Shown here: piece by piece, positions 7,513-61,441 of the stretch | Layout of the letters: each line of letters begins with the position of its first letter | Numbering within the stretch: the stretch's first letter is position 1 | Source: an uncultured Leptospirales bacterium | GTDB taxonomy: Bacteria > Spirochaetota > UBA4802 > UBA5550 | Direction: 5' to 3' | Length of the DNA stretch: 64,000 bases | NCBI GenBank assembly: GCA_964529415.1 | Contig: CAZGWD010000002.1 | Span: forward strand, 222,089-286,088 | The notes under the pieces: generated by a model | The model's input: only the letters and a program-made list of their open reading frames with translations | Told to the model about the DNA's origin: nothing | Database searches by the model: none | Made by a program: the position numbers and the translations under genes

Positions 7513-7970
7513 TTTTAAATTTTGTTTAAATCTTTCTAAAATATATTTCTTTGAATATAGCTTTTATAAAATCAAATATTTTATCAATTACGGAGCATTT
7601 CCTGAGACAGATTGCAGTTTTCAAGCACCAAAAAGCAACTATAAATCCTGACAAACTGTTTTATATCAGGAAATACTAAATGAATTCTGCATCAATACTT
7701 GCCGGAATACATCTTTTGTATATAGAATAAGGGGGATGTGCAGGATGAATTATTCCGCTTATACAAGCTGTACTGATTTTGTATAAAATCCTTCTTGTGA
7801 ATACTTTCTTAGTTAAATTAAATCATATCATACTGACGGAAAGCATGAAGCTGCTTACAGTTTGCTGTAACTTTGCTGCAAGTAGAGATAATTCAGATAT
7901 TAAACAACAACGAGGAGAATCCTTGTGAAGCCCAAGTACTGATCAAATCAGGACTTAGCTTTTAAAAATG

Positions 7971-8044
7971 CACGCCCGGCAGGAGTCGAACCTGCGACGC
8001 ACGGATTCGAAGTCCGACGCTCTATCCAACTGAGCTACGGGCGC
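7971..8044 (-). tRNA. tRNA-Arg, anticodon read as UCG
   Basis: Reverse complement GCGCCCGTAGCTCAGTTGGATAGAGCGTCGGACTTCGAATCCGTGCGTCGCAGGTTCGACTCCTGCCGGGCGTG folds as a cloverleaf with 7-bp acceptor, D-arm, anticodon loop CTTCGAA and T-loop TTCGACT. The 5' end resembles E. coli tRNA-Arg. Confidence 0.8.
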
Positions 8045-10362: not shown

Positions 10363-10396
10363 TCCTCCCCATTGCCAAGGGGGAGACAGAGGGGGT
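10363..10396 (+). repeat. G-rich hairpin repeat (CCCC-ATTGCCAA-GGGGGAGACAGAGGGGGT) upstream of hisS
   Basis: Same family as 61457-61487 and 61851-61883, with an inverted copy at 61367-61407. Confidence 0.55.
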
Positions 10397-10416: not shown

Positions 10417-11676
10417 ATGATTACAAAGCCGCCGGGAATTGAAGATATTTTTCCAGACAGAATTGAAAAATGGAATCATATTATAAACTCAGCTCGAGAA
10501 GCCTTTGATCTGTACAACTTCAAAGAAATAATAATTCCAATTATGGAATTCACAGAAGTATTCGCGCGGGGCCTCGGCGGAGAAACAGATATTGTATCAA
10601 AAGAAATGTTTACCTTCGAGGACCGCGGCGGCAGAAGCCTCACTCTTCGTCCGGAAGGGACTGCATCTGCTGTGCGCGCCTATGTTGAAAACGGCGAATA
10701 CAACAGGCTTTCCATATGCAAATTTTTCTACTGCGGACCGATGTTCAGAGCGGAGAAACCCCAGAAAGGACGGCTCAGGCAGTTCAACCAGTTCGGTGCT
10801 GAAATTTTCGGAAGCTCCGACCCCTACCATGATTTTGAAATTATTTCAATGGTAGATTCAATTGCAAAAAAGCTTAACATTGCCGGATATGAACTTTTAC
10901 TAAACTCAATAGGCTGCCCTCAATGCAGGCCCGACTTCTTAACTAAATTGCAGAAATTCTATGCTGAAAAACTCCCTAAGCTGTGCGACGACTGCAAAAG
11001 AAGATATGACAAAAACATACTGCGCCTGCTTGACTGCAAAAATGAAAAATGTATTGAAATAAAAAAAGATGCTCCTGTAATAACAGATTACATCTGCAGC
11101 AAGTGTTCTGATCATCATGTTATGGTTAAAGCCTATATATCTGACGCGAAAATAGCATTCAGGGAGGATCCATTACTCGTTCGCGGTCTTGACTATTACT
11201 CAAGAACCACTTTTGAATTTGTGACAACAGACATAGGAGCGCAGAATGCTTTTGCAGCAGGAGGCAGATATGACAGCCTTGTTGAAACATTCGAAGGCAA
11301 ACCCACGCCTGCAGTTGGTTTTGCTGCAGGCATTGAAAGACTTTTCCTTATGATTGAAAAAAATGAAATTGTGCAGAAAGCTCTCGATGTATACGTTATT
11401 CACAGCGGAGGTGAAACTTTATCTGCTGCTGTAAAAATTGCAGGCGAATTAAGAGATAATCATATATCATCGGACATAGACCCGTCAGGAGCCAGCTTCA
11501 AATCGCAATTTAAAAAAGCCGACAGGGAAAAGGCAAGATTCTGTGCTATACTTGGCGAAGATGAATTTAAATCAGGCGATGTAACTGTAAAAAATATGGC
11601 TACAGGCGAACAGGAAAAATGCCCGCAGCTGGAATTAATAAACAGGATAAAATCAGGAATAAATCAGACGAGGTAA
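10417..11676 (+). CDS. hisS: Histidyl-tRNA synthetase carrying a cysteine-rich insertion
   Basis: LRPEGTASAVRAY motif 2 and FEFVTTD..AAGGRYD motif 3. Four CxxC pairs lie between the motifs. Confidence 0.9.
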   Translation: MITKPPGIEDIFPDRIEKWNHIINSAREAFDLYNFKEIIIPIMEFTEVFARGLGGETDIVSKEMFTFEDRGGRSLTLRPEGTASAVRAYVENGEYNRLSICKFFYCGPMFRAEKPQKGRLRQFNQFGAEIFGSSDPYHDFEIISMVDSIAKKLNIAGYELLLNSIGCPQCRPDFLTKLQKFYAEKLPKLCDDCKRRYDKNILRLLDCKNEKCIEIKKDAPVITDYICSKCSDHHVMVKAYISDAKIAFREDPLLVRGLDYYSRTTFEFVTTDIGAQNAFAAGGRYDSLVETFEGKPTPAVGFAAGIERLFLMIEKNEIVQKALDVYVIHSGGETLSAAVKIAGELRDNHISSDIDPSGASFKSQFKKADREKARFCAILGEDEFKSGDVTVKNMATGEQEKCPQLELINRIKSGINQTR

Positions 11677-12296: not shown

Positions 12297-12336
12297 AAAC
12301 TTTTTATAAAATTAAAGTGTTTATATGTGTAAGTAA

Positions 12337-12441
12337 GGGAGATAAAAGAGATAGAAGAGATGATGGAGATAAAAAAATTTAAGAAGAATTTATATAAAAA
12401 AAATCATTCCCCCGATCTCCTCAATCCCCACATCCCCTGCT
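12337..12441. repeat. Second copy of the MITE-like purine-rich element, inverted relative to 23241-23372
   Basis: GGGAGATAAAAGAGATAGAAGAGATGATGGAGATAAAAAAA...CCCCCGATCTCCTCAATCCCCACATCCCCTGCT. Confidence 0.45.
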
Positions 12442-12458
12442 CTTACACTTATTAACTT

Positions 12459-23138: not shown

Positions 23139-23240
23139 TATAAAAAAATAGTTGATTAAATGAGCATGGATAATTCTTATTTAATAAAAGTTCCCCAACC
23201 CCAAGGCATATTTTATCTGTATCTTTATATAATAAAAGAT

Positions 23241-23372
23241 TCAGGGGATAGGGAGATAAAAAAGGAGAGATGGCAGGATATTTATTTTTTTTAAATTATA
23301 TCATTTATTATCATTGAATTTATTAGAATAACTTAAAAAATTATCTCCTTATCTCTTCCATCTCCATATCTC
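23241..23372. repeat. MITE-like purine-rich element with imperfect terminal inverted repeats
   Basis: GGGGATAGGGAGATAAAAAAGGAGAGATGG ... AT-rich core ... ATCTCCTTATCTCTTCCATCTCCATATCTC. A related copy lies in inverted orientation at 12337-12441. Confidence 0.5.
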
Positions 23373-24795: not shown

Positions 24796-24830
24796 TATTT
24801 TTTTTGCAATGGATCTTTCTTTTTTTTACA

Positions 24831-24935
24831 GGAAAGTCCGTAATAAAATCAGAATGCTTTTCACACAACCATGTAACCAATAAGGTATAATTCAGTTTCC
24901 CGGAAGTTAAAAGCAGCTATAATTTTTGACTTTCC
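24831..24935 (+). repeat. Copy A of a ~105-nt intergenic element (GGAAAGTCCG ... AAAGCAGCTATAATTTTTGACTTTCC)
   Basis: The termini GGAAAGTC and GACTTTCC are inverted repeats. The internal box is shared with copies at 26999-27088 and 53189-53294. Confidence 0.6.
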
Positions 24936-25148
24936 TTTTGAGAACAGACAATATTATTTTTTTCTTTTATCACAGTCTTTGATGGAAAGATAAAAATAAA
25001 TGCTTCACTGCTGCAAACATGACACTCCTATTTATTATTAATTTATTCAAATTCAGAAATAGATATTTTATTATTTTTATAAAAAAATACTCGAATAATA
25101 AAATCCGGTATGATAAAGTTCCTGAATCTTTAATAGAGAAAAGATGAG

Positions 25149-26978
25149 GTGAAAATGAAAATTATACTATTTCTTCTGATGATAATAGCTGCCGCATCGA
25201 AACCGCTGCTGTCCCAGCCTGTAATCATTTCCGATTCTGCTGAAAATTACAGTTTATGGGACCACGTATATATATTTGTAGATAAACAAGGGGATTTTCC
25301 CCTGGAAAAACTGATTAATGCTGATTGGGTTAAAAATGACAGAAAAATGATCCAGTTCGGAATATCAGGCAATACATACTGGTTTAAATTTACAGTAAAT
25401 AACAGGCTTTCAAAAAATCTGAAATTCTATCTCGACACTAATGATACACAGACGGAAATTCTTGAACTGTATCAGTATGATAAAAACGGCATGAAACTGC
25501 TCCAGAAAGCAGGAAGATATCACCCTGAATCATTCAGAAACTGGAACAGGCCCGAAATTATAATTACTCCGCCATCCGGTGAAACTGTTTACTTCCTCAA
25601 AGCGCAAAGCAGTTCTTATATTACATTTGACCTTATTTTGAGAACGCCGATTGACTTTTATAAAAGCATTGCGCGGTCTGCCATTTTTTACGGCGCGTAT
25701 TTTTCAATTTTAATAGTAATGATTTTATACAACCTGCTGCTTTTTTTCGGACTCAGAAGCAGAACTTATGCACTTTATGTTCTGTATCTGTTAGCTATTT
25801 TCGGACAGATGTTTTTCGGGGAAGGTTTCGGGGTGCTTTTTCTGAATGAGGGATACAGGTCAGTATATTCGGTAATGGTATTAAATACAGCTCTGCTGTT
25901 CATGTCTTCTTTTTTTGATAACAGGAAAAAAAATCCCGTTCTTTATAAAATCACATATATTCTGATTGCGGTTACAACACTTTACGGAGCGGTATCATTT
26001 TTTATACAGCCACATAGAATTGACTTTTTCATCACCGGCAGCATAGTTTCGCCTGCTGCTTTTATATTCGTTATAGTAAACTGCATAATTGCGCTGCGGC
26101 AGGGCAATCCGTCAGCAAAATATTTCATTATCGGCTGGTTCGGTCTTATGTTTTTCAGCAGCCTGTATCTGGGTGTTACATCGGAAATACTGCCTGCAAA
26201 TTTTCTGACACTTAACGGCCTGGCAATTGGTACTGTTTTCGAAACTGTAATACTGTCCCTTGCGCTTGCACAGCAGGTGAATACTTCCAGAAAGGAAAAA
26301 GAGGAAGCAGACAGGAAAAGCATTGATCATAAAAACAGGATTATTGCATCAATATCACGTTTTGTTCCAATGCAGTTTGTAAGCTTCCTTGGCAAAGAAA
26401 GCATCATTGACATCAAGCTCGGAGACCAGGTTCACAAGGAAATGACTATTCTTTTCTCGGACATCAGGTCTTTTACAAGTCTTTCTGAACATCAGACTCC
26501 GCAGGAGACTATAGATTTTTTAAATTCATATTTCATGAGCATTGGGCCACTCATAAGAAAAAACAACGGCTTTATCGATAAATACATTGGTGATGCGATC
26601 ATGGCTTTATTTCCCAATAAAGTAGACGATGCAATAATGGCTGCAGTCAACATGATTGAGCAGCTGCATGAGTACAACAAGATCAGAGAATTAACCGGCC
26701 AGGAGCAGATTAATATCGGCATAGGTATTCATACAGGTAATCTCATGCTTGGAACAATCGGCGAGTCAAGCAGGATTGAGGCAACAGTAATTTCTGATGC
26801 AGTAAATACTGCATCGAGGCTTGAACATCTGAATAAAAAATTAAACACCAAGATACTCATTTCAAAGGAAAGCCTGGAAAAATCCGATCGCCGTTCAGAA
26901 TTTAATACAAGAAAGATCGGTCGGGTTGCAATAAGGGGAAAGGAAGATCATTTGGTTGTTTATGAAATATTAACTTGA
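25149..26978 (+). CDS. 7TMR-DISM receptor fused to a class III adenylate/guanylate cyclase
   Basis: Signal peptide, 7TMR-DISMED2-like ectodomain (GNTYWFKFTVNN), 7 TM segments, and a cyclase domain FSDIRSFTSLSE...GDAIMALF. Confidence 0.8.
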   Translation: MKMKIILFLLMIIAAASKPLLSQPVIISDSAENYSLWDHVYIFVDKQGDFPLEKLINADWVKNDRKMIQFGISGNTYWFKFTVNNRLSKNLKFYLDTNDTQTEILELYQYDKNGMKLLQKAGRYHPESFRNWNRPEIIITPPSGETVYFLKAQSSSYITFDLILRTPIDFYKSIARSAIFYGAYFSILIVMILYNLLLFFGLRSRTYALYVLYLLAIFGQMFFGEGFGVLFLNEGYRSVYSVMVLNTALLFMSSFFDNRKKNPVLYKITYILIAVTTLYGAVSFFIQPHRIDFFITGSIVSPAAFIFVIVNCIIALRQGNPSAKYFIIGWFGLMFFSSLYLGVTSEILPANFLTLNGLAIGTVFETVILSLALAQQVNTSRKEKEEADRKSIDHKNRIIASISRFVPMQFVSFLGKESIIDIKLGDQVHKEMTILFSDIRSFTSLSEHQTPQETIDFLNSYFMSIGPLIRKNNGFIDKYIGDAIMALFPNKVDDAIMAAVNMIEQLHEYNKIRELTGQEQINIGIGIHTGNLMLGTIGESSRIEATVISDAVNTASRLEHLNKKLNTKILISKESLEKSDRRSEFNTRKIGRVAIRGKEDHLVVYEILT

Positions 26979-26998
26979 GGTAATCTTTTTACTCATTT

Positions 26999-27088
26999 TA
27001 GAAAAGTCCGATAAAAAACAGAAAGCTTTGCCAAGCCGCATAGCGATTTAAGTTATAAGCTGAAAGCAGCTATAATTCTTAACATCCC
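26999..27088 (+). repeat. Copy B (degenerate) of the ~105-nt intergenic element
   Basis: AGAAAAGTCCGATAAAAAACAG ... GAAAGCAGCTATAATTCTTAACATCC. The right terminus is partly deleted. Confidence 0.5.
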
Positions 27089-27216
27089 CTCTTCTATCAG
27101 CTGGATAAAAATTATATTTTATACTTATTAAAATAATTTGAAAAAAGCACTACAGTAACACCTCTCATTTTTTTAAAATTTCTAAAAAAAAATCCAATTT
27201 TAATTGACAAATTTTC

Positions 27217-27252
27217 TATATACTACCAAATAGATCTTATTGGTAGTATATA
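27217..27252. promoter_or_regulatory. Perfect 13-bp inverted repeat with a 10-bp spacer, a candidate operator upstream of the sulfur-carrier operon
   Basis: TATATACTACCAA-atagatctta-TTGGTAGTATATA lies ~100 nt upstream of the 27354 start, adjacent to a TTGACA hexamer at 27205. Confidence 0.5.
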
Positions 27253-27353
27253 TTTTACTTTAATTCAATATGAATTATACGCTCTATTCTATAATTATAT
27301 GAATATGATAATTTTTTCTATGTTAATATGATCAAAAACAAACTGGAGGAATC

Positions 27354-27566
27354 ATGAAAATAACACTAAACGGGGAATCAAAAAGTATAGATAAGCCATA
27401 CAAATCTCTTCTGCACTTGTTAAAAGAAAGCGATGTGCAGAACCCTGATCTGGTTTCCGTTCAGCTAAACGGCCAATTTGTTGAAAAGTCATTATTTGAA
27501 TCAACAAATATCAAAGAAAATGATGAAATTGACTTTTTATACTTTATGGGCGGGGGTGCTTCATGA
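27354..27566 (+). CDS. ThiS/MoaD-fold sulfur-carrier protein (HcyS/CysO-like) with a C-terminal extension beyond Gly-Gly
   Basis: 70-aa beta-grasp-sized protein ending ...FMGGGAS. It is translationally coupled to the sulfhydrylase and sits in an operon with an E1 and a JAMM protease. Confidence 0.7.
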   Translation: MKITLNGESKSIDKPYKSLLHLLKESDVQNPDLVSVQLNGQFVEKSLFESTNIKENDEIDFLYFMGGGAS

Positions 27567-28795
27567 ACGGATTTACCACCAGGGCTGTTCACGGGTTTTC
27601 TCTGAAAAAAGATCCTCATGGCTCGCTTAGGATGCCGGTGTATGACAATGCTGCTTTTGAAATCGGCAGCTCAAGAGACCTTGAACTTGCCTTTGCCGGT
27701 AAAAAAGCAGCTCACGCCTATTCCCGGATAACCAACCCGACAGTAGAAGACTTTGAACAGAGGGTCCGGATTCTCACAGGCGCATTTGGTGTAATTGCTG
27801 TTTCCTCAGGCATGGCAGCAATAACAAATACTATAATGACACTTGCCCAAAAAGGCTCAAATATTGTTACTTCGCGATTCCTTTTCGGTCATTCCATTTC
27901 GCTTTTTGAAACTACTCTTAAACGCTGGGGCCTTGAAACCCGTTATGTTGATATGCTTGATCTTTCTGCAGTTAAAAATGCAATAGATGATAAAACAAGC
28001 CTCATATTTCTTGAAGTTATAACCAATCCGCAGCTGGAAATAGCAGATTTAAAAGCCATATCATCTGCTGCATCTGATAGAAATATACCTGTGGTACTTG
28101 ACGGCACTCTCACAACTCCTTACATGATCCGTTCCAAAGACTTTGGCATTGCAGTTGAAATAATTTCCAGCACAAAGTACATGTCCGGAGGCGCAACTTC
28201 AGTTGGCGGCCTGATAATAGACAATGGAATTTTCAACTGGAGTAAATCTCCGCTTCTTGCAGATGATGCTGTACGAGTCGGTCCTGGTTCTCTCATCATG
28301 AGGCTGCGGCGCGAGGTTTACCGCAATTTCGGCGCCTGCCTCTCTCCGCATAATGCATGGCTGCAGGCACTGGGTCTCGAAACAATGGCTCTCCGGATAG
28401 AACGAAGCTGCAAAAACGCCCTTGCCCTTGCAGTATTTCTAAAGGGCCATACTAAGATAAAAAGCGTCAATTATCCCGGTCTGCCGGATTCCCCATTTCA
28501 TGAAATTGCTCAGCGCCAATTCAACAATCTCTTCGGAGGAATTTTGACATTTGAACTCGAGGGCAAGAATGAAAGTTTTCAATTGATGGATTCGCTCCAG
28601 CTGATAAAACGCGCTACAAATTTAAACGATAACAAATCACTGATAATCCATCCGGCTTCAACCATTTTTGCTGATAATACGATTGAGGAAAAAGCAGGAA
28701 TGAAGGTGAGTGAAGGACTAATCCGGCTATCTGCAGGAATTGAAGACATTGATGATATAATAAACGACCTTAAACAGGGACTGGAAAAATTATGA
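27563..28795 (+). CDS. metY: O-acetylhomoserine/O-acetylserine sulfhydrylase (MetY-type, Cys/Met-metabolism PLP enzyme)
   Basis: TRAVHGF...RITNPTVEDFEQRV...SSGMAAI and the PLP-lysine region SSTKYMSGG; 410 aa. Confidence 0.8.
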   Translation: MNGFTTRAVHGFSLKKDPHGSLRMPVYDNAAFEIGSSRDLELAFAGKKAAHAYSRITNPTVEDFEQRVRILTGAFGVIAVSSGMAAITNTIMTLAQKGSNIVTSRFLFGHSISLFETTLKRWGLETRYVDMLDLSAVKNAIDDKTSLIFLEVITNPQLEIADLKAISSAASDRNIPVVLDGTLTTPYMIRSKDFGIAVEIISSTKYMSGGATSVGGLIIDNGIFNWSKSPLLADDAVRVGPGSLIMRLRREVYRNFGACLSPHNAWLQALGLETMALRIERSCKNALALAVFLKGHTKIKSVNYPGLPDSPFHEIAQRQFNNLFGGILTFELEGKNESFQLMDSLQLIKRATNLNDNKSLIIHPASTIFADNTIEEKAGMKVSEGLIRLSAGIEDIDDIINDLKQGLEKL

Positions 28796-29607
28796 GAGAA
28801 TTTACAGAAGATCAGCTTGAAAGATACAGCCGCCACATTTTATTGAAAGATGTTGGAGTTGAAGGACAGGAACGCATCATGAATTCCAAGGTGCTTATTA
28901 TAGGAGCCGGCGGACTCGGAGCTCCTGCAGCCCTTTATCTTGCAGCAGCCGGCGTCGGCACTATTGGAATAGCTGACGGGGATGATGTTGATCTTTCCAA
29001 TCTTCAGCGCCAGATAATTCATTTTACTGAAGATGTCGGCACGTCAAAGGCAAATTCCGCTGAAAATAAAATACGCGCATTAAATCCGGATGTAACAGTA
29101 AAAACCTACCATGAATTTGTGATGGCCCGCAATATCCGCGGCCTGATTCATGGGTATGATTTTATTATAGACGGTACTGACAATTTCGCAACAAAATTCC
29201 TTATCAATGACGCCTGTGTAATGGAAAATATTCCATACTCTCATGGCGGTATATTGAAATTCACCGGCCAGACCATGACAGTTATACCTCACGCTTCTGC
29301 CTGCTATAGATGCGTTTTCCAGGCTCCGCCTCCCAAAAATGCAGTACCTACCTGTTCACAGGCCGGAGTTCTTGGAGCAATAGCAGGAATGCTTGGAACC
29401 ATACAGGCTGCTGAAGCGCTGAAATACGTGGCAAAAATAGGCAAACCTCTTACAGATTCGCTTTTAACATTTGATGCACTGGGCATGGATTTCAGAAAAG
29501 TTCCGTTACGCAAAAGGGATAATTGTCAAATTTGCGGATCTTCTCCGACAATTTTCCAACTTGCAGACGAAGAACAGGCTGCCTGCGATCTTAAAACCAA
29601 AGCATAA
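28792..29607 (+). CDS. ThiF/MoeB/HcyF-type E1-like adenylyltransferase (no rhodanese domain)
   Basis: LIIGAGGLGAPAALYLAAAGVG nucleotide-binding motif and CxxC zinc motifs (CYRC, CQIC); 271 aa. Confidence 0.85.
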   Translation: MREFTEDQLERYSRHILLKDVGVEGQERIMNSKVLIIGAGGLGAPAALYLAAAGVGTIGIADGDDVDLSNLQRQIIHFTEDVGTSKANSAENKIRALNPDVTVKTYHEFVMARNIRGLIHGYDFIIDGTDNFATKFLINDACVMENIPYSHGGILKFTGQTMTVIPHASACYRCVFQAPPPKNAVPTCSQAGVLGAIAGMLGTIQAAEALKYVAKIGKPLTDSLLTFDALGMDFRKVPLRKRDNCQICGSSPTIFQLADEEQAACDLKTKA

Positions 29608-29617
29608 GGAGAATGAC

Positions 29618-30025
29618 ATGCTGCGAATAGCTAAAACAGTAATAGACGGAATGATATCGCACTCAAAAAAAGATGCACCAATAGAGGCTTGCGGTTATTG
29701 CGCTGAGTCAAGCGGCATAATTGATGCCTGGTTTCCCCTGACCAATACAGACGGCTCTCACGAGCATTTTTCGCTTGATCCGGCAGAGCAGTTTGTCTGC
29801 ATAAAAAAAATCAGGTCTCAGGGCAGGAGGCTTGCTGCTGTTTATCACAGCCATCCTGAAACTCCATCCCGGCCTTCTGCAGAAGATATAGCCCTTGCAG
29901 CAGATCCTGACATTAGCTATGTGATCGTTTCACTTGCAAACAATGAATCAACTGTTAAGTCATTCAAGATACGGAACAGCATTGCTGTTGAGGAATCGAT
30001 TGAGATAACAGGAGATATCAGATGA
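29618..30025 (+). CDS. JAMM/MPN+ metalloprotease (Mec+/HcyD-like)
   Basis: E..(ACG)...HSHPETPSRPSAEDI JAMM motif. The start was set to the ATG at 29618, which follows an AGGAG and the ThiF stop. The track ORF's upstream part overlaps thiF. Confidence 0.8.
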   Translation: MLRIAKTVIDGMISHSKKDAPIEACGYCAESSGIIDAWFPLTNTDGSHEHFSLDPAEQFVCIKKIRSQGRRLAAVYHSHPETPSRPSAEDIALAADPDISYVIVSLANNESTVKSFKIRNSIAVEESIEITGDIR

Positions 30026-32355
30026 CATCATACGAAATTCCAGTCACCCTTGCAGGTGAAATCAACGATCTTGAAAAATATATTGAGGCATTTGCCAGCA
30101 ATAAAATATCAGACACTGAACTTAAAGCAAGACGGGTTCCTTTCGGGATATACGAGCAGAGAACAAAAGGAACATATATGATGCGGGTCAGATGTTCAGC
30201 AGGGATTATTACACCTGGTCAGCTTTTACGCGTATCAGAGCTTTCCAAGAAGTTCACACCTGGAATTCTTCATATTAGCACCAGGCAGGAAATCCAGATT
30301 CATGACGTAAAGCTGAATGATATTGTTTCTATTTTAAATGAATTATTACGTGCCGGATTATCAACCAGAGGCGGCGGAGGAAACACTGTCCGCAATATTA
30401 CTGCATCATGGGATTCAGGCATTTCCAAAAACGAGGTTTTCGATGTTCATCCCTACGCAGTCGCTCTTACAACTAAATTGACAGCATTGCCGAATTCATG
30501 GCTGATGCCGCGAAAATTCAAGATCGCTTTTTCAAACAATCCGGATGATACAGCATTTGCAACTGTTACAGATGTTGGATTCATTGCAGCTGAAAAAAAC
30601 GGCGTGCACGGATTCAGGGTATATGTAGCTGGAGGACTCGGCAGAATGCCTGAAAGAGGCCATCTGCTTCATGACTTTATTCCTGCAGGCGAATTTTTTG
30701 CTGTAGCTGAATCAGTAAAGCGCCTCTTTTCTATTTACGGTAACAGAAAAAATAAACATAGCGCCAGATTAAGATTTCTCTGGAAAACTCTTGGACGCGA
30801 AAAATTTACAGAAAAATACAACGAAATCAGGACTGACCTGCAAAAAAATGAAATCACATCTCTTCCGGTGATTCCAATTAAAAATGAATCCGTCAGGCAT
30901 ACAGCAGCAGTTTCCGGATCTGTATTATCATCTGAATTTGATTTCTGGAAAAAATATTATGTATATGAACAAAAACAGGCAGGCGCAGTTTCAGTTAAAA
31001 TCCCGATTCAATCCGGCATGATAAGCGCAGACAAAATGATTTTACTTGCAAAACACATTGAAGAGTATGGCGAGAATACAATCCGGTTTACATTAGACCA
31101 GAACATTACTCTTCGCAATATTCCTGAAGCGAATTTAGAATCTCTCTTTTCAGTTATAAAAAAAATCACCGGTCTTGCTGTCAAGGCTCCCTTTTTTGGA
31201 AATGCCGTTGCCTGTGCAGGAGCAAGCACCTGCCAGCTCGGTATCTGTTTATCGCGCGGTGCTCTCAATGCAGTATATGACCGTCTGCTATCATCAGATA
31301 TTGCAGCGGATACTCTTGCAGGGATAAAGCTTAATATTTCAGGATGCCCAAATTCCTGCGGCCAGCATCAGATTTCAGATATAGGATTCTTCGGCAAAGC
31401 ATCACGCATGGGAGAGCATTCTTATCCTGCATATTCTATTGTTGCCGGTTCCAGAATTTCAGCTGACAAGACTGTGCTTGCAGAAAAAATAGATGAAATA
31501 AGCGCTCATGACCTGCCGGTATTTCTGGAGGATATCTTCAGGGAGTATGAAAAGAGCGCAGCAAATTATAATTCATTCACAGATTATATTGAAGCGGAAG
31601 GAAAAGATGCTATAAAAAAAACAGCCGGTTCATACAGGCCTATACCGGATTTTGCTGAAAATAAAAATTACTATTTCGACTGGGGATCGGAAACAAAATT
31701 CTCCGTTACAGGACGGGGAACCGGCGAATGCGCTTCAGGTGTTTTTGATATTATCGATATAGACAGGAAGCATATGGAATCCCTTGAAAAGTCAATAGAA
31801 TCATCCCCGACAGAAGATTCCGTTTATGCGCTTGTTCTGGCTGCTTCAAGAATGCTTCTTGTGACCAGAGGCATTGACACTTCATCTGAAAATGAAATAT
31901 TCTCTGAGTTTAAAAAGCAGTTTATAGAATCCGGTCTGGTTGGAATTCATTATTCTGAAATTATAGATAAAGCAGCCAGCAATGACAGGAGCGGTCTGTT
32001 TGCTGCCAGAAATTCAGTTTTATCTCTCTCTCAGGATATGAATAAATTATATGCAACACTTGATGACTCATTGCAGTTCCATACCGCACATGCATTAAAA
32101 ACAGAATCCCTGGAAAACAGGAATCCGCCTGTTCCGGATCAGACTAAGGATCTTAGAGGCGTTGCCTGCCCTATGAATTTTGTTAAAACCAAAATAGCTT
32201 TATCCTCAATGAAATCCGGAGAACTGCTCGAGGTACTTCTTGATAACGGAGCGCCGATAGAAAATGTTCCAAAATCCGTGGAACTTGAGGGTCATAAAAT
32301 AGCGGCGCAGGAACCAAAAGACGGATTCTGGTCTGTTCTGATCAGGAAGGCCTGA
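30022..32355 (+). CDS. Ferredoxin-type sulfite/nitrite reductase (siroheme-[4Fe-4S]) fused to a C-terminal TusA-like sulfur-relay domain
   Basis: Nitrite/sulfite-reductase half-domains and the cluster-ligand Cys motifs CAGASTCQLGIC and GCPNSCGQH. The C-terminus reads LRGVACPMNFVKTKI...GELLEVLLDNGAPIENVP (TusA/SirA-like, conserved Cys). An uncharacterised ~150-aa segment lies between them; 777 aa overall. Confidence 0.75.
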   Translation: MTSYEIPVTLAGEINDLEKYIEAFASNKISDTELKARRVPFGIYEQRTKGTYMMRVRCSAGIITPGQLLRVSELSKKFTPGILHISTRQEIQIHDVKLNDIVSILNELLRAGLSTRGGGGNTVRNITASWDSGISKNEVFDVHPYAVALTTKLTALPNSWLMPRKFKIAFSNNPDDTAFATVTDVGFIAAEKNGVHGFRVYVAGGLGRMPERGHLLHDFIPAGEFFAVAESVKRLFSIYGNRKNKHSARLRFLWKTLGREKFTEKYNEIRTDLQKNEITSLPVIPIKNESVRHTAAVSGSVLSSEFDFWKKYYVYEQKQAGAVSVKIPIQSGMISADKMILLAKHIEEYGENTIRFTLDQNITLRNIPEANLESLFSVIKKITGLAVKAPFFGNAVACAGASTCQLGICLSRGALNAVYDRLLSSDIAADTLAGIKLNISGCPNSCGQHQISDIGFFGKASRMGEHSYPAYSIVAGSRISADKTVLAEKIDEISAHDLPVFLEDIFREYEKSAANYNSFTDYIEAEGKDAIKKTAGSYRPIPDFAENKNYYFDWGSETKFSVTGRGTGECASGVFDIIDIDRKHMESLEKSIESSPTEDSVYALVLAASRMLLVTRGIDTSSENEIFSEFKKQFIESGLVGIHYSEIIDKAASNDRSGLFAARNSVLSLSQDMNKLYATLDDSLQFHTAHALKTESLENRNPPVPDQTKDLRGVACPMNFVKTKIALSSMKSGELLEVLLDNGAPIENVPKSVELEGHKIAAQEPKDGFWSVLIRKA

Positions 32356-32357
32356 CC

Positions 32358-32588
32358 ATGAAGGAAAAGCATTATCGAAGTATTGTCAAAGGATTTTCAT
32401 ACCGGATATTCGGGACAATGGCAACTATAAGCATTTCATATGCAGCAACAGGAAATTCCGGAACAGCCCTTTCAATCGGATTAGCTGATGTGGCAGTAAA
32501 GGTTGCCATCTATTACTTTCATGAACGTGCATGGAATAAAATTCCACTCGGAAAAATAAAAGCGAAACAGGATGATTATCAAATATAG
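32358..32588 (+). CDS. DUF2061-family small membrane protein
   Basis: 76 aa, KGFSYRIFGTMATISISYAATGN; I recall this family as often adjacent to cysH. Confidence 0.55.
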   Translation: MKEKHYRSIVKGFSYRIFGTMATISISYAATGNSGTALSIGLADVAVKVAIYYFHERAWNKIPLGKIKAKQDDYQI

Positions 32589-32597
32589 AGGTGTACC

Positions 32598-33311
32598 ATG
32601 ACTGCAGAAATAGAAAAATATAAAGAGGAAGTAAGGAATCTGAATGCAGAGGCAATAATTGCCTGGGCTCTGGACACATTCGGGCAATCCAGACTGGTTC
32701 TTGCCTCAAGCATGAGTGCCGAGGACCAGTTGCTGACGCATCTGCTTCTATCCTACAACAATCAATCACGGATATTTACCCTTGATACCGGAAGGCTTTT
32801 TCAGGAGACTTATGATACCATGCAAAAAACCATAGAACGCTATAATTTCTGTTACGAAATTTATGCACCTGAAAACAGTGCTGTTGAATCCCTTGTTGCT
32901 GTACACGGTCCGAATCTGTTTTATAAAAACGTTGAGCTTAGAAAAAAATGCTGTACTGCAAGAAAGACGATCCCCCTGCAACGTGTTCTTAAAACTGCGG
33001 ATGCATGGATTTGCGGACTACGAAGGGACCAGGCTGTAACACGGGATTACATAGAACCGGTTGAGTTTGACCATGAGAATAAACTATTCAAAATAAATCC
33101 ACTTTACAATTGGTCTGAACAGATGGTTTGGGATTCTGTTAAAAGTCTCAGCATCCCCTATAATCCCCTGCAGGATAACGGGTTCCGCAGCATTGGTTGC
33201 GCTCCATGCACACGGGCAATTGGCAGGAATGATGATGTCCGTTCAGGAAGATGGTGGTGGGAAGATCCGGAACACAAGGAGTGCGGATTGCACGCCAAAC
33301 CAAAAACGTAA
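32598..33311 (+). CDS. cysH: Adenylyl-sulfate (APS) reductase, thioredoxin-dependent, Fe-S type
   Basis: PAPS/APS-reductase fold with the cluster cysteines KKCC and CAPC plus the catalytic ECGLH motif; 237 aa. Confidence 0.85.
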   Translation: MTAEIEKYKEEVRNLNAEAIIAWALDTFGQSRLVLASSMSAEDQLLTHLLLSYNNQSRIFTLDTGRLFQETYDTMQKTIERYNFCYEIYAPENSAVESLVAVHGPNLFYKNVELRKKCCTARKTIPLQRVLKTADAWICGLRRDQAVTRDYIEPVEFDHENKLFKINPLYNWSEQMVWDSVKSLSIPYNPLQDNGFRSIGCAPCTRAIGRNDDVRSGRWWWEDPEHKECGLHAKPKT

Positions 33312-33349
33312 ATCACGGATTATAAAGAAATTAAAATTTAAACAGAGAT

Positions 33350-34243
33350 ATGGAAACTAAAATGGATAACTTAGAAAAACTTGAATCAAAAAGCATTTAT
33401 ATTCTACGGGAAGCATACAGGGAATTTAAAAACCTATGCATGCTCTGGTCTATAGGCAAGGACAGCACAGTTCTGTTATGGCTTGCGAGAAAAGCTTTTT
33501 TTGGACATGTGCCGCTGCCGCTTGTGCATATTGACACACATTTTAAAATTCCCGAGATGATTGAATACCGCGACAGGCTCGCACTCGACTGGAATCTTAA
33601 CATGGTTTACGGAGAAAACAGCGAGGCGCTGAAAAACAAACTTACTTTTCCGGATAAAAACGCAGACCGCCTTACCTGCTGCAAGAATCTAAAGAGCGAG
33701 GCTCTCAAGCATACTCTTTCAGGAGACTGGCCCAGATACAGGATGGATCATGCAAAGCGCGAATATGTGCCTGATTCAAACAGGGAACCATATACCGGAG
33801 TAATAGTGGGTGTCCGGGCTGATGAGGAAGGAAGCCGTTCAAAGGAGAGGTACTTTTCTCCGCGCGACAGGGAGAATGAATGGAATGTCGGCGATCAGCC
33901 TCCGGAGCTATGGAATCAGTTTAAAACTGATTTTGCGCCAGGCACGCACCTTCGCATACACCCCCTTCTTGACTGGACCGAACTAAACATATGGGAGTAT
34001 ATCGAAAGGGAAAAGATCCCTACAGTATCTTTATATTACGATCAGGGGACTGGCAAACGGTACAGATCACTCGGTTGCTACCCATGCACAAATTCAGTTG
34101 AGTCCGGCGCAAAAAATGCTGCGGATATAATTCTGGAGCTGAAAAGCGGAAAATTTGCAAACATAGCAGAACGTTCAGGCCGAGCACAGGATAAAGAAGA
34201 TGGCGGCGGATTGGAAGCACTCAGAAAAGAAGGATACATGTAA
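33350..34243 (+). CDS. cysD: Sulfate adenylyltransferase subunit 2
   Basis: PP-loop [18 protein letters not shown]; 297 aa. Confidence 0.9.
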
Positions 34244-34342
34244 ATTAAATTTAACAGCAGGCAGATGTGATGATTAACAATACCGATGAATCTTTTTAAT
34301 CATTAATCATCAGCCAAATTATTGCAGATAGAGGAAAATACA

Positions 34343-36130
34343 ATGCGTGAACAGATGAATATAGTAGTAGTAGGACATGTTGACCACGGCAAAAGCACTG
34401 TTATAGGAAGACTACTCGCTGATACCGGCTCGCTTCCTGAAGGAAAACTTGAGCAGGTAAAGCAGACCTGCGAGCGGAATGCACGGCCGTTTGAATATGC
34501 TTTTCTTCTCGATGCCCTTAAGGATGAACAGTCCCAGGGTATAACAATTGACACAGCAAGATGCTTTTTTAAATCCGCAACGCGCGATTACATTATCATA
34601 GATGCCCCAGGGCATGTGGAATTTCTTAAAAACATGATCAGCGGAGCTGCCCGCGCTGAAGCTGCGCTTCTTGTTATAGACGCTAACGAAGGAATCCAGG
34701 AAAATTCAAAACGCCACGGTTATCTTTTGTCCATGCTTGGCATTAAGCAGATTGCAGTGCTTGTAAATAAAATGGATCTTGTCGGCTACAGCAAAAAAGT
34801 TTTTGAATCAGTATGCGGGGAATATGATCTGTTTCTTTCAAAACTTGGATTGCGTCCGGCTGCCTATATACCAATAAGCGCGCGCGATGGCGAAAATCTG
34901 ACAAATGCTGCTGCTGCAATGAAATGGTATAGCGGCAATACAGTTCTTGGCCACATTGATAATTTCACCAGACAGGATGATATCTCTCACAAGCCGTTCA
35001 GATTTCCGGTGCAGGATGTTTACAAATTTACTGAAGCCCTTGACGACCGCCGCATAATTGCAGGTACAGTTGAAACCGGAACAATATCTGTTAATGATAA
35101 AGTCATCTTTCACCCATCCGGTAAAAGATCAGAGATTGTATCGATTGAAGGATTCAATGTGCCGACGCAAACATCTGCCGGTCCGGGTGCAGCAACAGGC
35201 TTTACAATCAAAGATGAGCTGTATCTCCAAAGGGGTGAAGTAATGTGCAGAATTGATGATGAACAGCCTGCAGTCTATTCCCGTTTCAGGGCAAATGTAT
35301 TCTGGATGGGGAACTCACCTATGGTCAAGGGAATAAAATATAAACTTAAAATCGCGACAGCGCGGGTATCAGTCCGGCTTGTTAATATTATTTCAAGCAT
35401 AGATGCAACCGACCTGAGCACATCTTCCGGCAAGCAGCAGATAGACAGGCATGATGTTGCTGAATGCATTTTCGAAACTACAAGGCCGATCGCCTTTGAT
35501 AATATCTCAAACATACAATCCATGGGCAGATTTGTAATAGTCGACAACTATGATATTGCCGGAGGAGGAATCATCACTAATAGCGAAAGCAGCGATGAAG
35601 CGCTTTTTTCAGAACAGATAAAAAAAAGGGAACAGGAGTGGGACAAGGGTTTTGTTACAATCAATGACAGGGAAAACATGTTCAAGCATAAAGCCAAATT
35701 CATTGTTCTTACAGGAACCAAACGCAGCAATGATATTGCCAAACATCTCGAGCGAACGTTATTCAGCAAAAACCATATCTCCTATTACCTGAGCCTTGCA
35801 AATCTGGAAGGCGGTCTTGACAGCGATGTTGTTGATGAGCAGGACAAACGGGATGAGAGGATCCGCCGTCTTGGAGAGCTTGCCCGTATTTTAACGGATG
35901 CAGGAACAATTTTCATTACAGCCATCACTGATGCAAATTCATATGATCTGGATATTTTATCAAGGCTGACATCTCCAAATGAGTTCCTGCATGTTTCTCT
36001 CGGCAGAGAGGTTGAATCAAGCAATGTCAATCACCTTTCACTCGATGAGGACTCCCCTGCTGAACAGCTGACCGGGGCCATTCTTCAGAGTCTGGCCATG
36101 CAGGAAATCATACCCGAGTATTCGATATGA
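34343..36130 (+). CDS. cysN: Sulfate adenylyltransferase subunit 1 (GTPase) with a C-terminal degenerate APS-kinase-like domain
   Basis: [10 protein letters not shown]1 motif, DAPGH and NKMD. The C-terminal ~150 aa resemble APS kinase ([25 protein letters not shown]) but lack the GxxGxGKS P-loop (LTGTKRSND). The start is the ATG at 34343, after GAGGAAAA. Confidence 0.85.
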
Positions 36131-37287
36131 AATCATTTATGCCAGTATGCCTCAATGTCGCAGATTCACGTATTGTGATAATCGGCGGCGGCAAAGTAGC
36201 CCTGCAGAAACTGCAGACAATAATATTATTTTCAGATAAAATTTCTGTATACGCCGGTACTATTCTTGATGAAATTAAAGAACTCAATGTAAGCTGCCAT
36301 GAAAAAGAATACGCTTCTGAATACATTGAAGATGCAATGCTCGTATATGCCTGTACTGACAATGCAGCTTTAAATAGAAGGATTCTTGATGATTGCCGCA
36401 AAACAGGGACTCCCGCCAATATTGCTGATGCGCCGGAACTTTGTGATTTTATATCTCCGGCACTTTTTAAAAAAGGAAACATGAGTGTGGCAGTAAGCTC
36501 CAACGGTGAAGATGCAAAAAAATCTGTAGCGTGGAGGAACATGTTAAGGAGATTTCTAAGCGGCGTTTTACAAAAAGAATCTATTGCTCTGAATTCAGCA
36601 GGAAAAGTGTGGCTTGTCGGAGCCGGGCCTGGTGATCCCGATCTTCTAACAATTAAGGCAGATAAAATCCTCTCCATGGCTGATGTCATTTATTTTGATG
36701 ATCTCCTTGATGACTCCTTTCAAAAACGTTATTCAGCGGAATTTGTGTATGTCGGAAAACGAAAAGGCAGCAACTGCATAACCCAGGAGGAAATCAGCGA
36801 ACAGCTTTATCAGGCTTCAAAATCAGGAAAAATAGTTGTGAGACTCAAGGGAGGAGATCCGCTGATCTTCTCCAGAGGCGGAGAGGAGCTTGATTATCTG
36901 CAGAGCCGGGGAGTTAAAGTTGAGGTTGTCCCGGGAATAAGCGCGTTTCAGGCAGCAGCTGCATCCCAGAAAATACCTCTCTCCCACAGGGGCATATCCA
37001 GAACAATTGGTATTGCATCCGGCCACTATGCCAAAGACGATGATATCCCGGCACTTGCAGCTGACACTGCTGTTTATTATATGGCTTCAACCAAACTAAA
37101 GGAGCTGCAGGCATCTCTTCTGCGCGGAGGAAGAAGCCCTGAAATTCCGGTTGCCCTTATAAGAAATGCAAGCCTCCCTGATGAACAGGTCTGCAGAACT
37201 ACTTTAAAAGATATGGCAGATATAACCATGGCCTCGCCTCTTATAATAATTATAGGGAATTCTGCAAATAATGCCGGTTTTTCCTGA
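36127..37287 (+). CDS. cysG: Siroheme synthase (precorrin-2 dehydrogenase/sirohydrochlorin ferrochelatase N-domain plus uroporphyrinogen-III C-methyltransferase C-domain)
   Basis: N-terminal [14 protein letters not shown] Rossmann fold; C-terminal [22 protein letters not shown] signature; 386 aa. Confidence 0.85.
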
Positions 37288-37457
37288 AAAAGATCTATTT
37301 AAAACAACAGGAAAACAATCTTCCTATTTAAAAAGTTATTGACTATGATCAGATTTTAAATATATTATTAATTAAGGTTGTTTTTTAAATAAATAAATTT
37401 TTTAATTATTTTAAACTTTTCAAATGAAGAATCGGGTTTTACCGATGAATATATTTA

Positions 37458-44734: not shown

Positions 44735-44985
44735 TTAAACGGGTTATCTTCCTAAAATAATAGCTTGTATTTTAATGATTAAAGTTTTAATTAGCATTTT
44801 ACATTCTTGAACAGTTTGTCAATAATTATAGTTGCATTTAACTACCAAAAAGCATCAGAATGTCTCTTGAAACGAAGAAACATAATAAAATATTTTTATA
44901 CTTAACAAATTACACAATGAATATAAAGCAGATTCTTAATGAACTTTTTTCCCTATACTGTTTTTACAGGATAATTTTTATTTAG

Positions 44986-48345: not shown

Positions 48346-48432
48346 TATTAACTATATAATCTGTTTTTCTTCCTAAATAATCAATAAAGACTTTTATTGA
48401 TTATTTTAAATATACATACAAATAAAAAATTG

Positions 48433-49425: not shown

Positions 49426-49710
49426 TAATTACTCCTCTTAAAAAACTATGATTTTTCAAATATATTTATATTTATAAAATTTCTTAAAAGTATTTTTTTA
49501 TTTATTTTCAAGTGAAGACCGTTCTTAAAATAGAATGTTACCCGCTGCTTAACATGATACATACATCAGCATGCCGGAATTAAAAAAGCAACTATAATTC
49601 ATTAAAAATTTTTCTGCCGGAAGCAGGAGATAATAAATTTTCAATTTAGATCATGTAATAAAAAAAGATTGCATTTTGAAAAAATATATTCATAATGATA
49701 AATAATCATT

Positions 49711-52182
49711 ATGAATATATTAAAATTAATACTAACTGTTTTAACAGGAGTTTTAATTCTTTCAGCCTGCGCCAATAATGCAGGCAAAGAACGCCTGAGC
49801 TATGCTGTTAACGGATTTCTTGATCTTTCAGGACGGGACCTGAAAAATGGCGACACAATCAGACTCGATGGCGAATGGGAATTCTACTGGAACCGGCTGC
49901 TGACACCTGATGATTTTTCATCTGCCGAACCTCCTGAGAAAACCGGAAACATCACCATACCATCATACTGGAACGGATATAATACCGGCATAGGAACTGC
50001 TGGAGGAGAAGGATTCGCCACATACAGACTTAAAGTGAAAATTAAAGACGGAGGAAGACTTTATGCTTTAAGAATAAAACACATGTTCACTGCATACAGG
50101 TTATGGGTAAATAATAAAATTGTGGCTGCAAATGGAACAGTCGGCAGGGACAGAAAATCAATGGAACCGCAGTTTCTTCCCCTCGTAGCTGTTTTTAATC
50201 CTCAATCCGATGAATTTCAGATTATAATCCAGATTTCTAATTTTTATCATGCAAACGGCGGCTTCTGGGATTCAATTTCTCTTGGAGATGATGAAACTAT
50301 CAGGTTCGGGCAGATACAGTCTCTGTTTTTTGAAATTTTTTTATTTGGCGTCCTTATTATAATGTGCATCTATTATATGGCTATTTTTATTCTGAGACGC
50401 CAGGACCATACATATTTATTTTTCAGTCTGTTGTGTTTTATAATTGCACTGAGAATACCATTTGTAGGAGAACGCTTTTTCATTTATTTTTTCCCGTGGC
50501 TGGACTGGGAGTTCTCTGAAAAAATCGCTTTTCTTACAGCTAATTTCGGAATCGTAATCGGAAATCTTTTTCTTTACTGGCTCCTGAAAAAGGATTATTC
50601 AAGGCTGATAATAAAAATCAGCACCGGATTTGGAATCACATACAGCCTTTTTGTTATTTTAAGTTTTTCGCGGTATTACTGGTACTCGCTGTATTTATTA
50701 TATGCAATTTTTCTGATATGGCTGTTTTACGATTTCTTCATAATAATAAAAGCTTCGATAAAAAAAAGAGAAGGCGCTGCATTTCTTATAACAGGTATAG
50801 CCTTTATATTTGCAGCTGTTGTTCTTGAAATCCTCTATCAGCTCCGGATAATAAATATCGGTCATGTGGCGCCATTCGGTTTATTTATTTTTATTATTAT
50901 GCAGGCGCTTATGCTGTCTTACAGGTATTCATTGTCATTTGAGAGGGTGGAAATGTTATCCCGTGAAAAAGCCGCTCTTTTTACAAGCGCCATTCAGATT
51001 ATTTCCTCATTGATTCTTGACAGCTCCACCAGGCTTTATGAAAAAACCCAGAATGTTACGAGAATATCAGTAATGCTTGCGCAAAAACTCGGTTATGATA
51101 TAGAAAAGATCGAGGAGATCAACATAGCATCGCTGCTTCACGACATCGGGATGATCGGGCTTCAGAATATTACTTCTGAATGGAGCGGAAAACCAAGCAA
51201 CGATGAAAAGCGGATGATCGAAAATCATCCAAGACGAAGCATTTATATCATCAGAAATCTCAGAGAGCTGGATGGCGTTAAAACCATCATTGAACAGCAC
51301 CACGAGTCGTATGATGGAAGCGGATTCCCAGCCGGTCTCAAAGGTGCACAGATTAACAAAGGCGCATCTATTATCAGGATTGCGGATGATTTTTTTACTA
51401 TGCTTGCCATTCCGGACTACCAGGATATTGACAGGAAAGAAAAAATAATCCGGTACATAAATGAACAGAAAGGACGCATTTATCCGCCTGATGTTGCTGA
51501 TGCTTTTATATCTCTCATAAATGATGAAAATCTGCTTTACGAAGCTCATAGAGACGATATCTCATCAAGCGAAGAAAACGGCACGCTGACATGGAGAATG
51601 CCGAGCGCCCTTCACCTGGAAAGCTTAATGATTGCACGCGTAATGGACAAACTTAAAGAGCTGACTGATATTGATGAGGCCTCCATAAATTCTTTTGAAT
51701 TCAGCATAGGAGAAGTGGTGCGTAATGCTGTAATTCACGGAAATAAATATAATATAAACAAGTTTGTAACTGTGAGGCTCAGGGTGGGTGATAATCTTTC
51801 AATGAGCAATGGATATAAAAAAGTTGAGATATCTGTTATTGATGAAGGTGAAGGCATGGACTTCAATGTTTACACCCACTTCAAACAGCTGAGATCGGAT
51901 TTCAGCAGCGCAATTAAGTATATCAGGGAACAGAGAGATATAATAACTGATGCAGAAAGAAAAAGCTCTTTCACGAAAATAATCAAAAATTTTGAAGAAT
52001 TCCAGCTTAAATACTTCTTTGATTTCAATAAATTCATGCAGAGAAAAGGGGCTTACCTTTCAGGCGGTTTAGGGCTTCTTTATGTGCTGCGGACATTTGA
52101 CAATGTAGAATTCAGGAAAATTACAGATGAACACAGGGTATGCGGCATGGAAATAATTATGGAAAAAAACATCAGCTATTAA
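49711..52182 (+). CDS. 7TMR-DISM receptor fused to an HD-GYP phosphodiesterase and a C-terminal RsbW-like HATPase (Ser kinase) domain
   Basis: 7TMR-DISMED2 ectodomain and 7 TM segments. HD-GYP reads LLHDIGMIGL...HHESYDGSGFPAGLKG. HATPase_c reads EVVRNAVIHGN...ISVIDEGEGMD...SGGLGLLYV. 823 aa. Confidence 0.75.
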   Translation: MNILKLILTVLTGVLILSACANNAGKERLSYAVNGFLDLSGRDLKNGDTIRLDGEWEFYWNRLLTPDDFSSAEPPEKTGNITIPSYWNGYNTGIGTAGGEGFATYRLKVKIKDGGRLYALRIKHMFTAYRLWVNNKIVAANGTVGRDRKSMEPQFLPLVAVFNPQSDEFQIIIQISNFYHANGGFWDSISLGDDETIRFGQIQSLFFEIFLFGVLIIMCIYYMAIFILRRQDHTYLFFSLLCFIIALRIPFVGERFFIYFFPWLDWEFSEKIAFLTANFGIVIGNLFLYWLLKKDYSRLIIKISTGFGITYSLFVILSFSRYYWYSLYLLYAIFLIWLFYDFFIIIKASIKKREGAAFLITGIAFIFAAVVLEILYQLRIINIGHVAPFGLFIFIIMQALMLSYRYSLSFERVEMLSREKAALFTSAIQIISSLILDSSTRLYEKTQNVTRISVMLAQKLGYDIEKIEEINIASLLHDIGMIGLQNITSEWSGKPSNDEKRMIENHPRRSIYIIRNLRELDGVKTIIEQHHESYDGSGFPAGLKGAQINKGASIIRIADDFFTMLAIPDYQDIDRKEKIIRYINEQKGRIYPPDVADAFISLINDENLLYEAHRDDISSSEENGTLTWRMPSALHLESLMIARVMDKLKELTDIDEASINSFEFSIGEVVRNAVIHGNKYNINKFVTVRLRVGDNLSMSNGYKKVEISVIDEGEGMDFNVYTHFKQLRSDFSSAIKYIREQRDIITDAERKSSFTKIIKNFEEFQLKYFFDFNKFMQRKGAYLSGGLGLLYVLRTFDNVEFRKITDEHRVCGMEIIMEKNISY

Positions 52183-53161: not shown

Positions 53162-53188
53162 TTTATTTCCAAAATTATTTTTTTATAA

Positions 53189-53294: not shown

Positions 53295-53339
53295 GTACGC
53301 GTATTGAAAATATTAATTACATTTTACTGAGGTTAAGAG

Positions 53340-55217: not shown

Positions 55218-55229
55218 ACTGAAAGTCTT

Positions 55230-61327: not shown

Positions 61328-61366
61328 AAATTATTTACTTGATAAAAGAATCGACCGAAGGAAAAT

Positions 61367-61407: not shown

Positions 61408-61441
61408 AGAATCAACTTAATACAGAATTAATTGATTAATT

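Follow-up and report, generated by a model that had tools for sequence, protein, structure and literature searches.

A lineage-specific family of intergenic DNA modules with promoter-like features in an uncultured spirochaete

Introduction

What kind of element recurs upstream of unrelated genes in an uncultured member of the Spirochaetota? The question is raised by an intergenic sequence at positions 24831–24935 of a 64,000-nucleotide, AT-rich (38% GC) stretch of its DNA, which we refer to throughout as the window. A sequence-only reading of this DNA had described a family of ~105-nt structured elements with complementary ends, and offered two explanations: a promoter-carrying MITE, or a small RNA or attenuator closed by a terminal stem. 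Here we delimit the family, describe its anatomy, genomic setting and distribution among related strains, and weigh these explanations against two others, namely that the elements are reused promoter modules or sites of recombination.

Results

A profile search using nhmmer identified six full-length copies of an intergenic repeat in the window, each ~150 nt long, five on the + strand and one on the − strand. These are copy 1, the index copy (24816–24965, +), copy 2 (26986–27120, +), copy 3 (53176–53325, +), copy 4 (49497–49641, +), copy 5 (7542–7688, +) and copy 6 (44931–44783, −). Every copy is recovered by leave-one-out searches (E values of 1.1e-14, 1.2e-5, 3.9e-12, 2.1e-5, 3.4e-13 and 2.7e-6, respectively), spanning 1e-14 to 2e-5, while unrelated sequence scores 0.007 or worse, so we take the family to be real and distinct from a generic AT-rich consensus. 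A central box, AAAGCArCTATAATT, occurs eight times in the window when up to two mismatches are allowed, against 0.95 expected, and eight occurrences were reached in none of 100 shuffles. A weak nhmmer match at 58747–58802 (+, E 0.007–0.07), covering the 5′ half only and lying upstream of a radical-SAM/TRAM gene (start 58864), is a possible partial copy and a candidate member. Separate profiles of the 5′ and 3′ halves gave no significant independent half copies, and no conserved small ORF was found inside the elements.

Four further copies were found in assemblies of relatives, two in L028 and one each in L029 and L011, giving ten known copies whose alignment is colinear across ~150 nt. Paralogous copies are 42–63% identical, the similarity being uneven and concentrated in conserved blocks; the best pair, copies 1 and 3, reaches 78.6% over 56 nt, most pairs fall far lower, and no near-identical paralogs are present among the copies compared. 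The three near-full copies reported earlier (24831–24935, 26999–27088 and 53189–53294) are present, complete with the 5′ GGAAA(A)GTCCG and the box, and all six window copies are intergenic, as had been stated. The earlier count of three was nevertheless too low: the two places at which the box was thought to stand alone (7631–7648 and 49583–49600) are full-length members, with boxes at 7632–7646 and 49585–49599, and the − strand copy, with its box at 44824–44838, had been missed. Similarly, homology over the proposed ~105 nt is confirmed, but the ends lie ~15 nt further 5′, in a T-rich tract, and ~30 nt further 3′.

The possibility that there is no true family, and that the similarity is simply this organism's generic AT-rich promoter consensus, has in its favour that the sequences are AT-rich and that TATAAT and TTGAC are generic hexamers. 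We give it almost no credence, as the copies align colinearly across ~150 nt and give leave-one-out E values as low as 1e-14, the box has invariant, non-generic G and C positions and far exceeds its expected frequency, and none of the other promoter regions in the window (10311, 16750, 37339 and 20091) matches the profile. The leave-one-out searches therefore refute the generic-consensus reading, and the similarity did not collapse on alignment.

The window also holds a second, unrelated type of intergenic repeat, at 12319–12456 and 23237–23370, with shorter hairpins at 10365–10385 and 61365–61412. These are long imperfect inverted repeats rich in GGGAGA/TCTCCC (e.g. AGATTCAGGGGATAGGGAGATAA with TTATCTCCTTATCTCTTCCATCT, ~80–110 nt apart) and are located downstream or upstream of several core genes. 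A nominally intergenic region, 61901–62095, reads as the N-terminus of MutS (MTPMMKQYFEIKKNHQ...), and a relative has MutS at this place; mutS probably begins near 61903 (+) and extends beyond the window, in which case the − strand ORF at 62096–62479 would be spurious.

Read from 5′ to 3′, the ten-copy alignment consists of a T-rich tract, GGAAAAGTCCG, an A-rich block (TAAAATCAGAA), a variable middle in which GAGACAGAT and CCGGAAGT are often present (in some copies), the box, TTGAC(T/A), a spacer of 15–19 nt (usually 17–18 nt) and a −10-like hexamer. This last hexamer forms a conserved alignment column (AATATT, TATTAT, GATAAT, AATACT, TAAAAT) past the 3′ end originally reported, and TTGAC(T/A), originally taken as the 3′ terminus, aligns as the −35 hexamer. 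The box lies directly upstream of TTGAC and contains a second possible −10 (CTATAAT); this linear 15-mer is the most conserved part of the element, far better kept than the hexamers. In copy 1, the 5′ block GGAAAGTCCG (24832–24841, +), which is common to copies 2 and 3, one L028 copy (L028a) and the L011 copy and degenerate elsewhere, is followed by the invariant box AAAGCAGCTATAATT (24910–24924, +), which contains CTATAAT and ends 1 nt before TTGACT.

A consensus promoter scanner calls the σ70-like arrangement TTGACT-18-AATATT in copy 1 (24926–24955, +) and again in copy 3 (53285–53314, following a box at 53269–53283). The corresponding hexamers are TTAACA-19-GATAAA in copy 2 (box 27063–27077), CTGACA-18-AATACT in copy 5 (box AAAGCAACTATAAAT, 7632–7646) and TTGACA-15-TAAAAT in copy 6 (box AATGCAACTATAATT, 44838–44824, −), while in copy 4 (box 49585–49599) TTGAC is absent and the only candidate promoter is based on TATAAT. 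The L029 copy has the closest match, TTGACA-17-TATTAT, at 11 of 12 consensus positions. Overall, a hexamer scan places matches to 8–11 of 12 consensus positions, with spacings of 15–19 nt, at the same aligned position in nine of the ten copies; as a consensus match, and in that sense only, the family shows the σ70-type arrangement of −35 and −10 hexamers 16–18 nt apart and facing a gene. Other operons of the window are preceded by canonical TTGACA-17/18-TATAAA promoters (10–11 of 12 positions, at 10311, 16750, 37339 and 20091), so this type of motif appears to be in use in the organism.

The choice of promoter within the module is less clear-cut. Potential −35 partners upstream of the CTATAAT in the box are weak (3 of 6 positions), and each module would contain two overlapping candidate promoters of about equal consensus score, both matching ~9 of 12 positions, a level that is common in AT-rich intergenic DNA and of which shuffles give 1–4 matches per region. 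In the L028 copy downstream of purB the box reads AAAGCAATTTTAATT, with TATAAT changed to TTTAAT and TTGAC kept, and in the L029 copy it reads ACATCAAGAATAAAT, with TATAAT changed to AATAAA and TTGACA-17-TATTAT intact. As TTGAC is kept in these purB-locus copies where TATAAT is lost, it is at least as good a candidate for a promoter element, as a −35. The earlier suggestion that the embedded TATAAT and TTGACT hexamers mark a promoter is accordingly upheld as regards σ70-like hexamers, promoter position and orientation towards a gene, but weakened by the loss of the internal TATAAT in the two relatives. By eye, a σ54-type −24/−12 reading of CCGGAA...GCA fails on inconsistent spacing and a GG that is missing in half of the copies, and ECF-type, IHF, CodY and CRP/FNR-type motifs have no consistent match.

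The copies occupy the upstream regions of genes that are, by Pfam, mutually unrelated. Copy 1 begins 21 nt after the purB stop codon and ends 184 nt before a 7TMR-DISM adenylate/guanylate cyclase gene (start 25149); copy 2 begins 7 nt after the stop of that cyclase and lies upstream of a ThiS/sulfate-assimilation operon (ThiS start 27354). Copy 3 lies in the divergent gap that separates a 329-aa gene (−, start 53161) from a 625-aa gene (+, start 53340) whose product has no Pfam match, copy 4 is upstream of a 7TMR-DISM HD-GYP gene (start 49711) and copy 6 faces an acyltransferase-3/HGSNAT gene (start 44734). The next + strand gene after copy 5 is dprA (8077), beyond a − strand tRNA-Arg. Thus five of the six window copies, and nine of ten overall, face the start of an adjacent gene, the exception being copy 5, which has no clear target. 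Copies are present in four of the window's eight divergent gaps, in two tandem gaps and in none of the convergent ones, orientation statistics which draw on only ~4 independent copies in a tandem context. It had been claimed that every copy lies 50–270 nt upstream of a + strand gene; this does not apply to copy 5, which lies 429 nt from dprA with the − strand tRNA-Arg in between, or to copy 6, which faces a − strand gene.

Two further features were noted in the sulfur-assimilation region. At 27200–27260, ~100–150 nt upstream of ThiS, a TTGACA is followed by a hairpin (CTACCAAATAGATCTTATTGGTAG) that is conserved in L028 and has no Rfam match; it could be a proximal promoter or leader of the sulfur operon. 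Within the cluster, a 242-nt gap (32356–32597) is coding-like in composition and may hold a small ORF below the 80-aa cut-off.

Copies of the family were found only in the genus of the window, that is, in the window itself, L011 (GCA_964392365.1), L028 (ENA) and L029 (JGI), which have purB DNA identities to the window of 90%, 93% and 84%, respectively. Relatives L030–L034, at 73–77% protein identity and 46–52% GC, have no copies. A scan of GTDB species genomes with the exact pattern AAGTCCG-N45-75-box returned 10 matches, and one of metagenome contigs with the exact pattern box + TTRAC returned 16; in both sets only the pattern itself fitted the family profile, and we therefore regard these matches as chance. 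A blastn search of plasmids and phages gave no match.

Comparison of strains at the purB locus shows the setting in which the element is found. All four genomes have a family copy downstream of purB, placed before three different genes: the window and L028 have the cyclase, L029 has an unrelated gene and L011 has a 138-aa ORF, with an additional ORF preceding the element in L011. Phylogenetic footprinting of the window against L028 gives 84% identity for the element and 80% for the rest of the intergenic region; the element is no better conserved than the surrounding intergenic DNA, and this comparison therefore gives no evidence of purifying selection on the box. Copy 2 is orthologous to L028 10704–10784 in its 3′ half (87.7% over 65 nt) but not in its 5′ half, and one end of a 4.6 kb indel between the window and L028 falls within the copy.

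More broadly, the region downstream of purB (window 24796–37457, L011 11297–15522, L028 3962–11017) is a hot spot of variation in gene content among strains with 98–99% identical PurB. At this locus L011 lacks both the cyclase and the whole 10 kb ThiS/sulfite-reductase/CysNC/CysG cluster that the window has, and L028 has 4.6 kb of extra genes here, encoding an alpha/beta hydrolase, an NADase_transloc protein, an esterase and an SH3 protein.

A contiguous, syntenic stretch of 49 kb in GCA_964392365.1 (L036, L011 and L037) contains a single family copy. Five of the window copies (24816, 26986, 44931, 49497 and 53176) lie in or beside segments that are absent or replaced in that genome, and the variable segments do not stand out in GC content. 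At copy 6, the acyltransferase gene of the relative follows a tocopherol-cyclase-like gene after 80 nt, in the fashion of an operon; in the window the two genes are parted by a 3.6 kb strain-specific segment, which carries an OMP beta-barrel-like gene, a 200-aa ORF and an FG-GAP repeat protein gene, with copy 6 immediately ahead of the acyltransferase gene and facing it. In the window, TCTTCCTAAA(A)TAAT is confined to two sites (44747–44762 and 48368–48382), one at each edge of this segment; the relative has it once, at the empty site (L036 ~11048–11059), where the right flank is otherwise unconserved. The arrangement resembles an insertion or deletion associated with a ~14-nt direct repeat.

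Alternative gene sets also occupy the locus at window 49426–55229, which encodes the HD-GYP protein, the 329-aa ORF and the 625-aa protein, and at L036 7032–10000, which encodes a DUF4468 protein and a 7TMR-DISM SpoIIE phosphatase. A 68%-identical homologue of the 625-aa protein, P0122, has a weak match to Peptidase_M61_N. Beside the tRNA-Arg gene (window 7842–8044; L037 8574–9990), GCA_964392365.1 carries an island with a phage-type integrase, an HTH protein, an HNH nuclease, a reverse transcriptase and an HsdM methylase; the two genomes remain highly similar across ~130 nt 3′ of the tRNA gene (7842–7969), which is therefore probably the attachment region.

Discussion

We consider it slightly better than an even bet that the elements are a lineage-specific family of homologous DNA modules of ~150 bp, each combining a promoter with upstream regulatory sequence and placed before unrelated, mostly accessory genes, a case of what has been termed promoter reuse. 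RNA polymerase with the housekeeping sigma factor would initiate transcription of the adjacent gene from the module, TTGACn serving as the −35 and the downstream hexamer as the −10; alternatively, or in addition, CTATAAT in the box may be the −10 of an overlapping upstream promoter. The box, at about −37 to −52 and ending beside the −35, is probably a sequence-specific protein contact, either an activator or repressor site or a contact for sigma or alpha, because it is conserved far better than the hexamers. In favour of this promoter-module interpretation are the colinear homology of the ten copies, their intergenic position and orientation towards gene starts, the aligned −35 and −10-like hexamers, the lack of conserved RNA structure, the copies that precede three different genes downstream of purB in four genomes and, most tellingly among the strain comparisons, copy 6, which faces an acyltransferase gene parted from its neighbour by the 3.6 kb segment. 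Against it count the unusual length, for a simple promoter, of the ~95 nt conserved upstream of the −35, the altered box in two related copies (L028 and L029) and the lack of an obvious downstream target for copy 5, together with the commonness of ~9 of 12 consensus matches, the similar identity of element and surrounding DNA in L028, and the few tandem-context copies behind the orientation statistics.

The elements could instead act as RNA, in the form of a cis-regulatory riboswitch or attenuator or a small RNA whose termini close a stem. Like 5′ leaders, the copies lie upstream of genes, the termini are able to pair in three window copies, and copy 1 (24829–24937) gives a weak full-length match to the Rfam family RAGATH-21 (23.3 bits, E 0.029 in a 211-nt search). 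Covariation and folding do not bear this out, however. RNAalifold yields no consensus base pair for either strand; in the proposed closing stem GGAAAGTC/GACTTTCC, 53.9% of cells are paired, a value matched by 379 of 500 column shuffles, and one pair shows a double change against 2.6 expected, so that the compensatory changes looked for in the terminal stem amount to fewer than in shuffles, with no covariation. The z-scores of single-sequence folds range from −0.1 to −2.1, the element is not followed by a terminator and the strongest conservation is a linear 15-mer, not stems. No copy matches any Rfam family at gathering score (at that threshold the window yields tRNA-Arg only), and RAGATH-21, with a gathering score of 70.3, is matched by one of the five copies tested permissively (copies 1–4 and 6); we judge this match to be chance, and a literature search on RAGATH-21 found nothing. 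An RNA function, including the small RNA or attenuator proposed from the sequence, is therefore very unlikely.

Two further readings concern transposition and recombination. A MITE resembling Correia or ERIC elements, mobilised through terminal inverted repeats and carrying an outward-facing promoter, would fit a dispersed, non-coding, AT-rich family of 100–150 bp upstream of unrelated genes and associated with strain-variable segments, as well as the direct repeat of 14–15 nt that flanks the 3.6 kb segment bordered by copy 6. Copy 1 even has a 9-bp terminal inverted repeat, matched by only 7 of 300 shuffles, but it is the only copy whose end complementarity beats shuffles: the reverse-complementary termini described as a family feature are perfect in copy 1, bulged in copy 3 (53189) and absent or at chance level elsewhere, that is, in 8–9 of the ten copies. 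The low, blockwise identity of the paralogs and the lack of near-identical pairs also argue against a MITE, as do the absence of copies from convergent gaps and from the inside of genes, and from outside the lineage in the exact-pattern GTDB and metagenome scans and the blastn search of plasmids and phages. By eye, no target-site duplication is seen at the element ends, the sole flanking direct repeat bracketing the 3.6 kb segment, and a Pfam scan of window proteins found no transposase, integrase, invertase or recombinase domains. We thus rate the MITE proposal of the sequence-only reading as quite unlikely, and transposition of this kind as an unlikely route for the spread of the modules. 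The second reading, in which the elements are recombination sites or hot spots that mark the junctions of accessory cassettes, whether as targets of site-specific recombination or as dispersed homology driving gene gain and loss, with promoter features secondary, is unlikely too, though slightly less so. It draws on the five of six window copies in or beside segments missing from a relative with 98% identity in purB, which itself has one copy in 49 kb, on the chimeric appearance of copy 2, and on the three gene contents found with the copy downstream of purB in four genomes. On the other hand, the window has no recombinase gene, the other indel boundaries fall at gene ends and not at defined positions of the element, the element lacks attC-like features, and the sample is of only 4–5 junctions; moreover, the association with variable segments may be passive, as promoter regions tolerate insertions anyway.

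Two related candidates were rejected. An integron attC site would have an R″/R′ core pair (RYYYAAC ... GTTRRRY), which is not seen by eye at the element ends, and no integrase is present among the window proteins scanned with Pfam. An invertible promoter (inverton) is not consistent with inverted repeats in only one or two copies, the absence of an invertase from the window and the co-orientation of orthologous copies in the window and L028.

Returning to promoter modules, we infer that duplication or recombination brought them to unrelated genes, along with strain-variable gene segments or beside them. A more elaborate scheme of cassette exchange in this Spirochaetota genus, in which accessory genes (signalling enzymes, envelope proteins and the sulfur operon) would move as units bounded by the elements, with the elements acting both as portable promoters and as substrates for recombination and the box being read by a dedicated protein, seems to us decidedly improbable. 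If the elements are reused promoter modules, they show accessory genes of an uncultured spirochaete lineage gaining a common expression signal, and the 15-nt box would define a regulon that includes cyclic-nucleotide signalling genes. The family also offers a simple sequence marker for the flexible regions of these genomes. It is a real and lineage-specific repeat of an ordinary kind, not a new class of element, and has no bearing on a long-standing open question.

Among known systems, RAGATH-21 (RF03097) resembles the family in that one copy aligns over the full model, sharing the unpaired CCnUAAUA, GGAnGUU, AAAAGC and AAUU, but several model pairs are non-canonical in that copy and the repeat family has no conserved structure. 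Promoters with an UP element or upstream activator site are similar in having a conserved A/T-rich stretch directly upstream of TTGAC, at about −37 to −52. The invariant G and C positions of the box and its lack of dyad symmetry set it apart from both the UP-element consensus and a CRP/FNR-type palindrome. The Correia elements of Neisseria, ERIC and other promoter-bearing MITEs are likewise intergenic repeats of 100–150 bp able to give their neighbours −35 and −10 hexamers. Such MITEs have long terminal inverted repeats, target duplications, insertions in both orientations and high identity between copies, whereas the family described here has neither family-wide inverted repeats nor recent copies. 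The closest concept is that of putative mobile promoters, reportedly described by Matus-Garcia, Nijveen and van Passel in 2012 and the subject of a commentary (PMC3575422). These are homologous non-coding sequences directly upstream of non-homologous genes in one genome, not tied to any known mobile element and with an unknown mode of spread (PMC3575422), and related non-coding segments here likewise precede unrelated genes. The threshold of at least 80% identity over at least 50 nt used for putative mobile promoters (PMC3575422) is narrowly missed by our best pair. Compared with them (PMC3575422), the present family is, to judge from the divergence of its copies, older and more diverged, with one 15-nt box that is nearly invariant.
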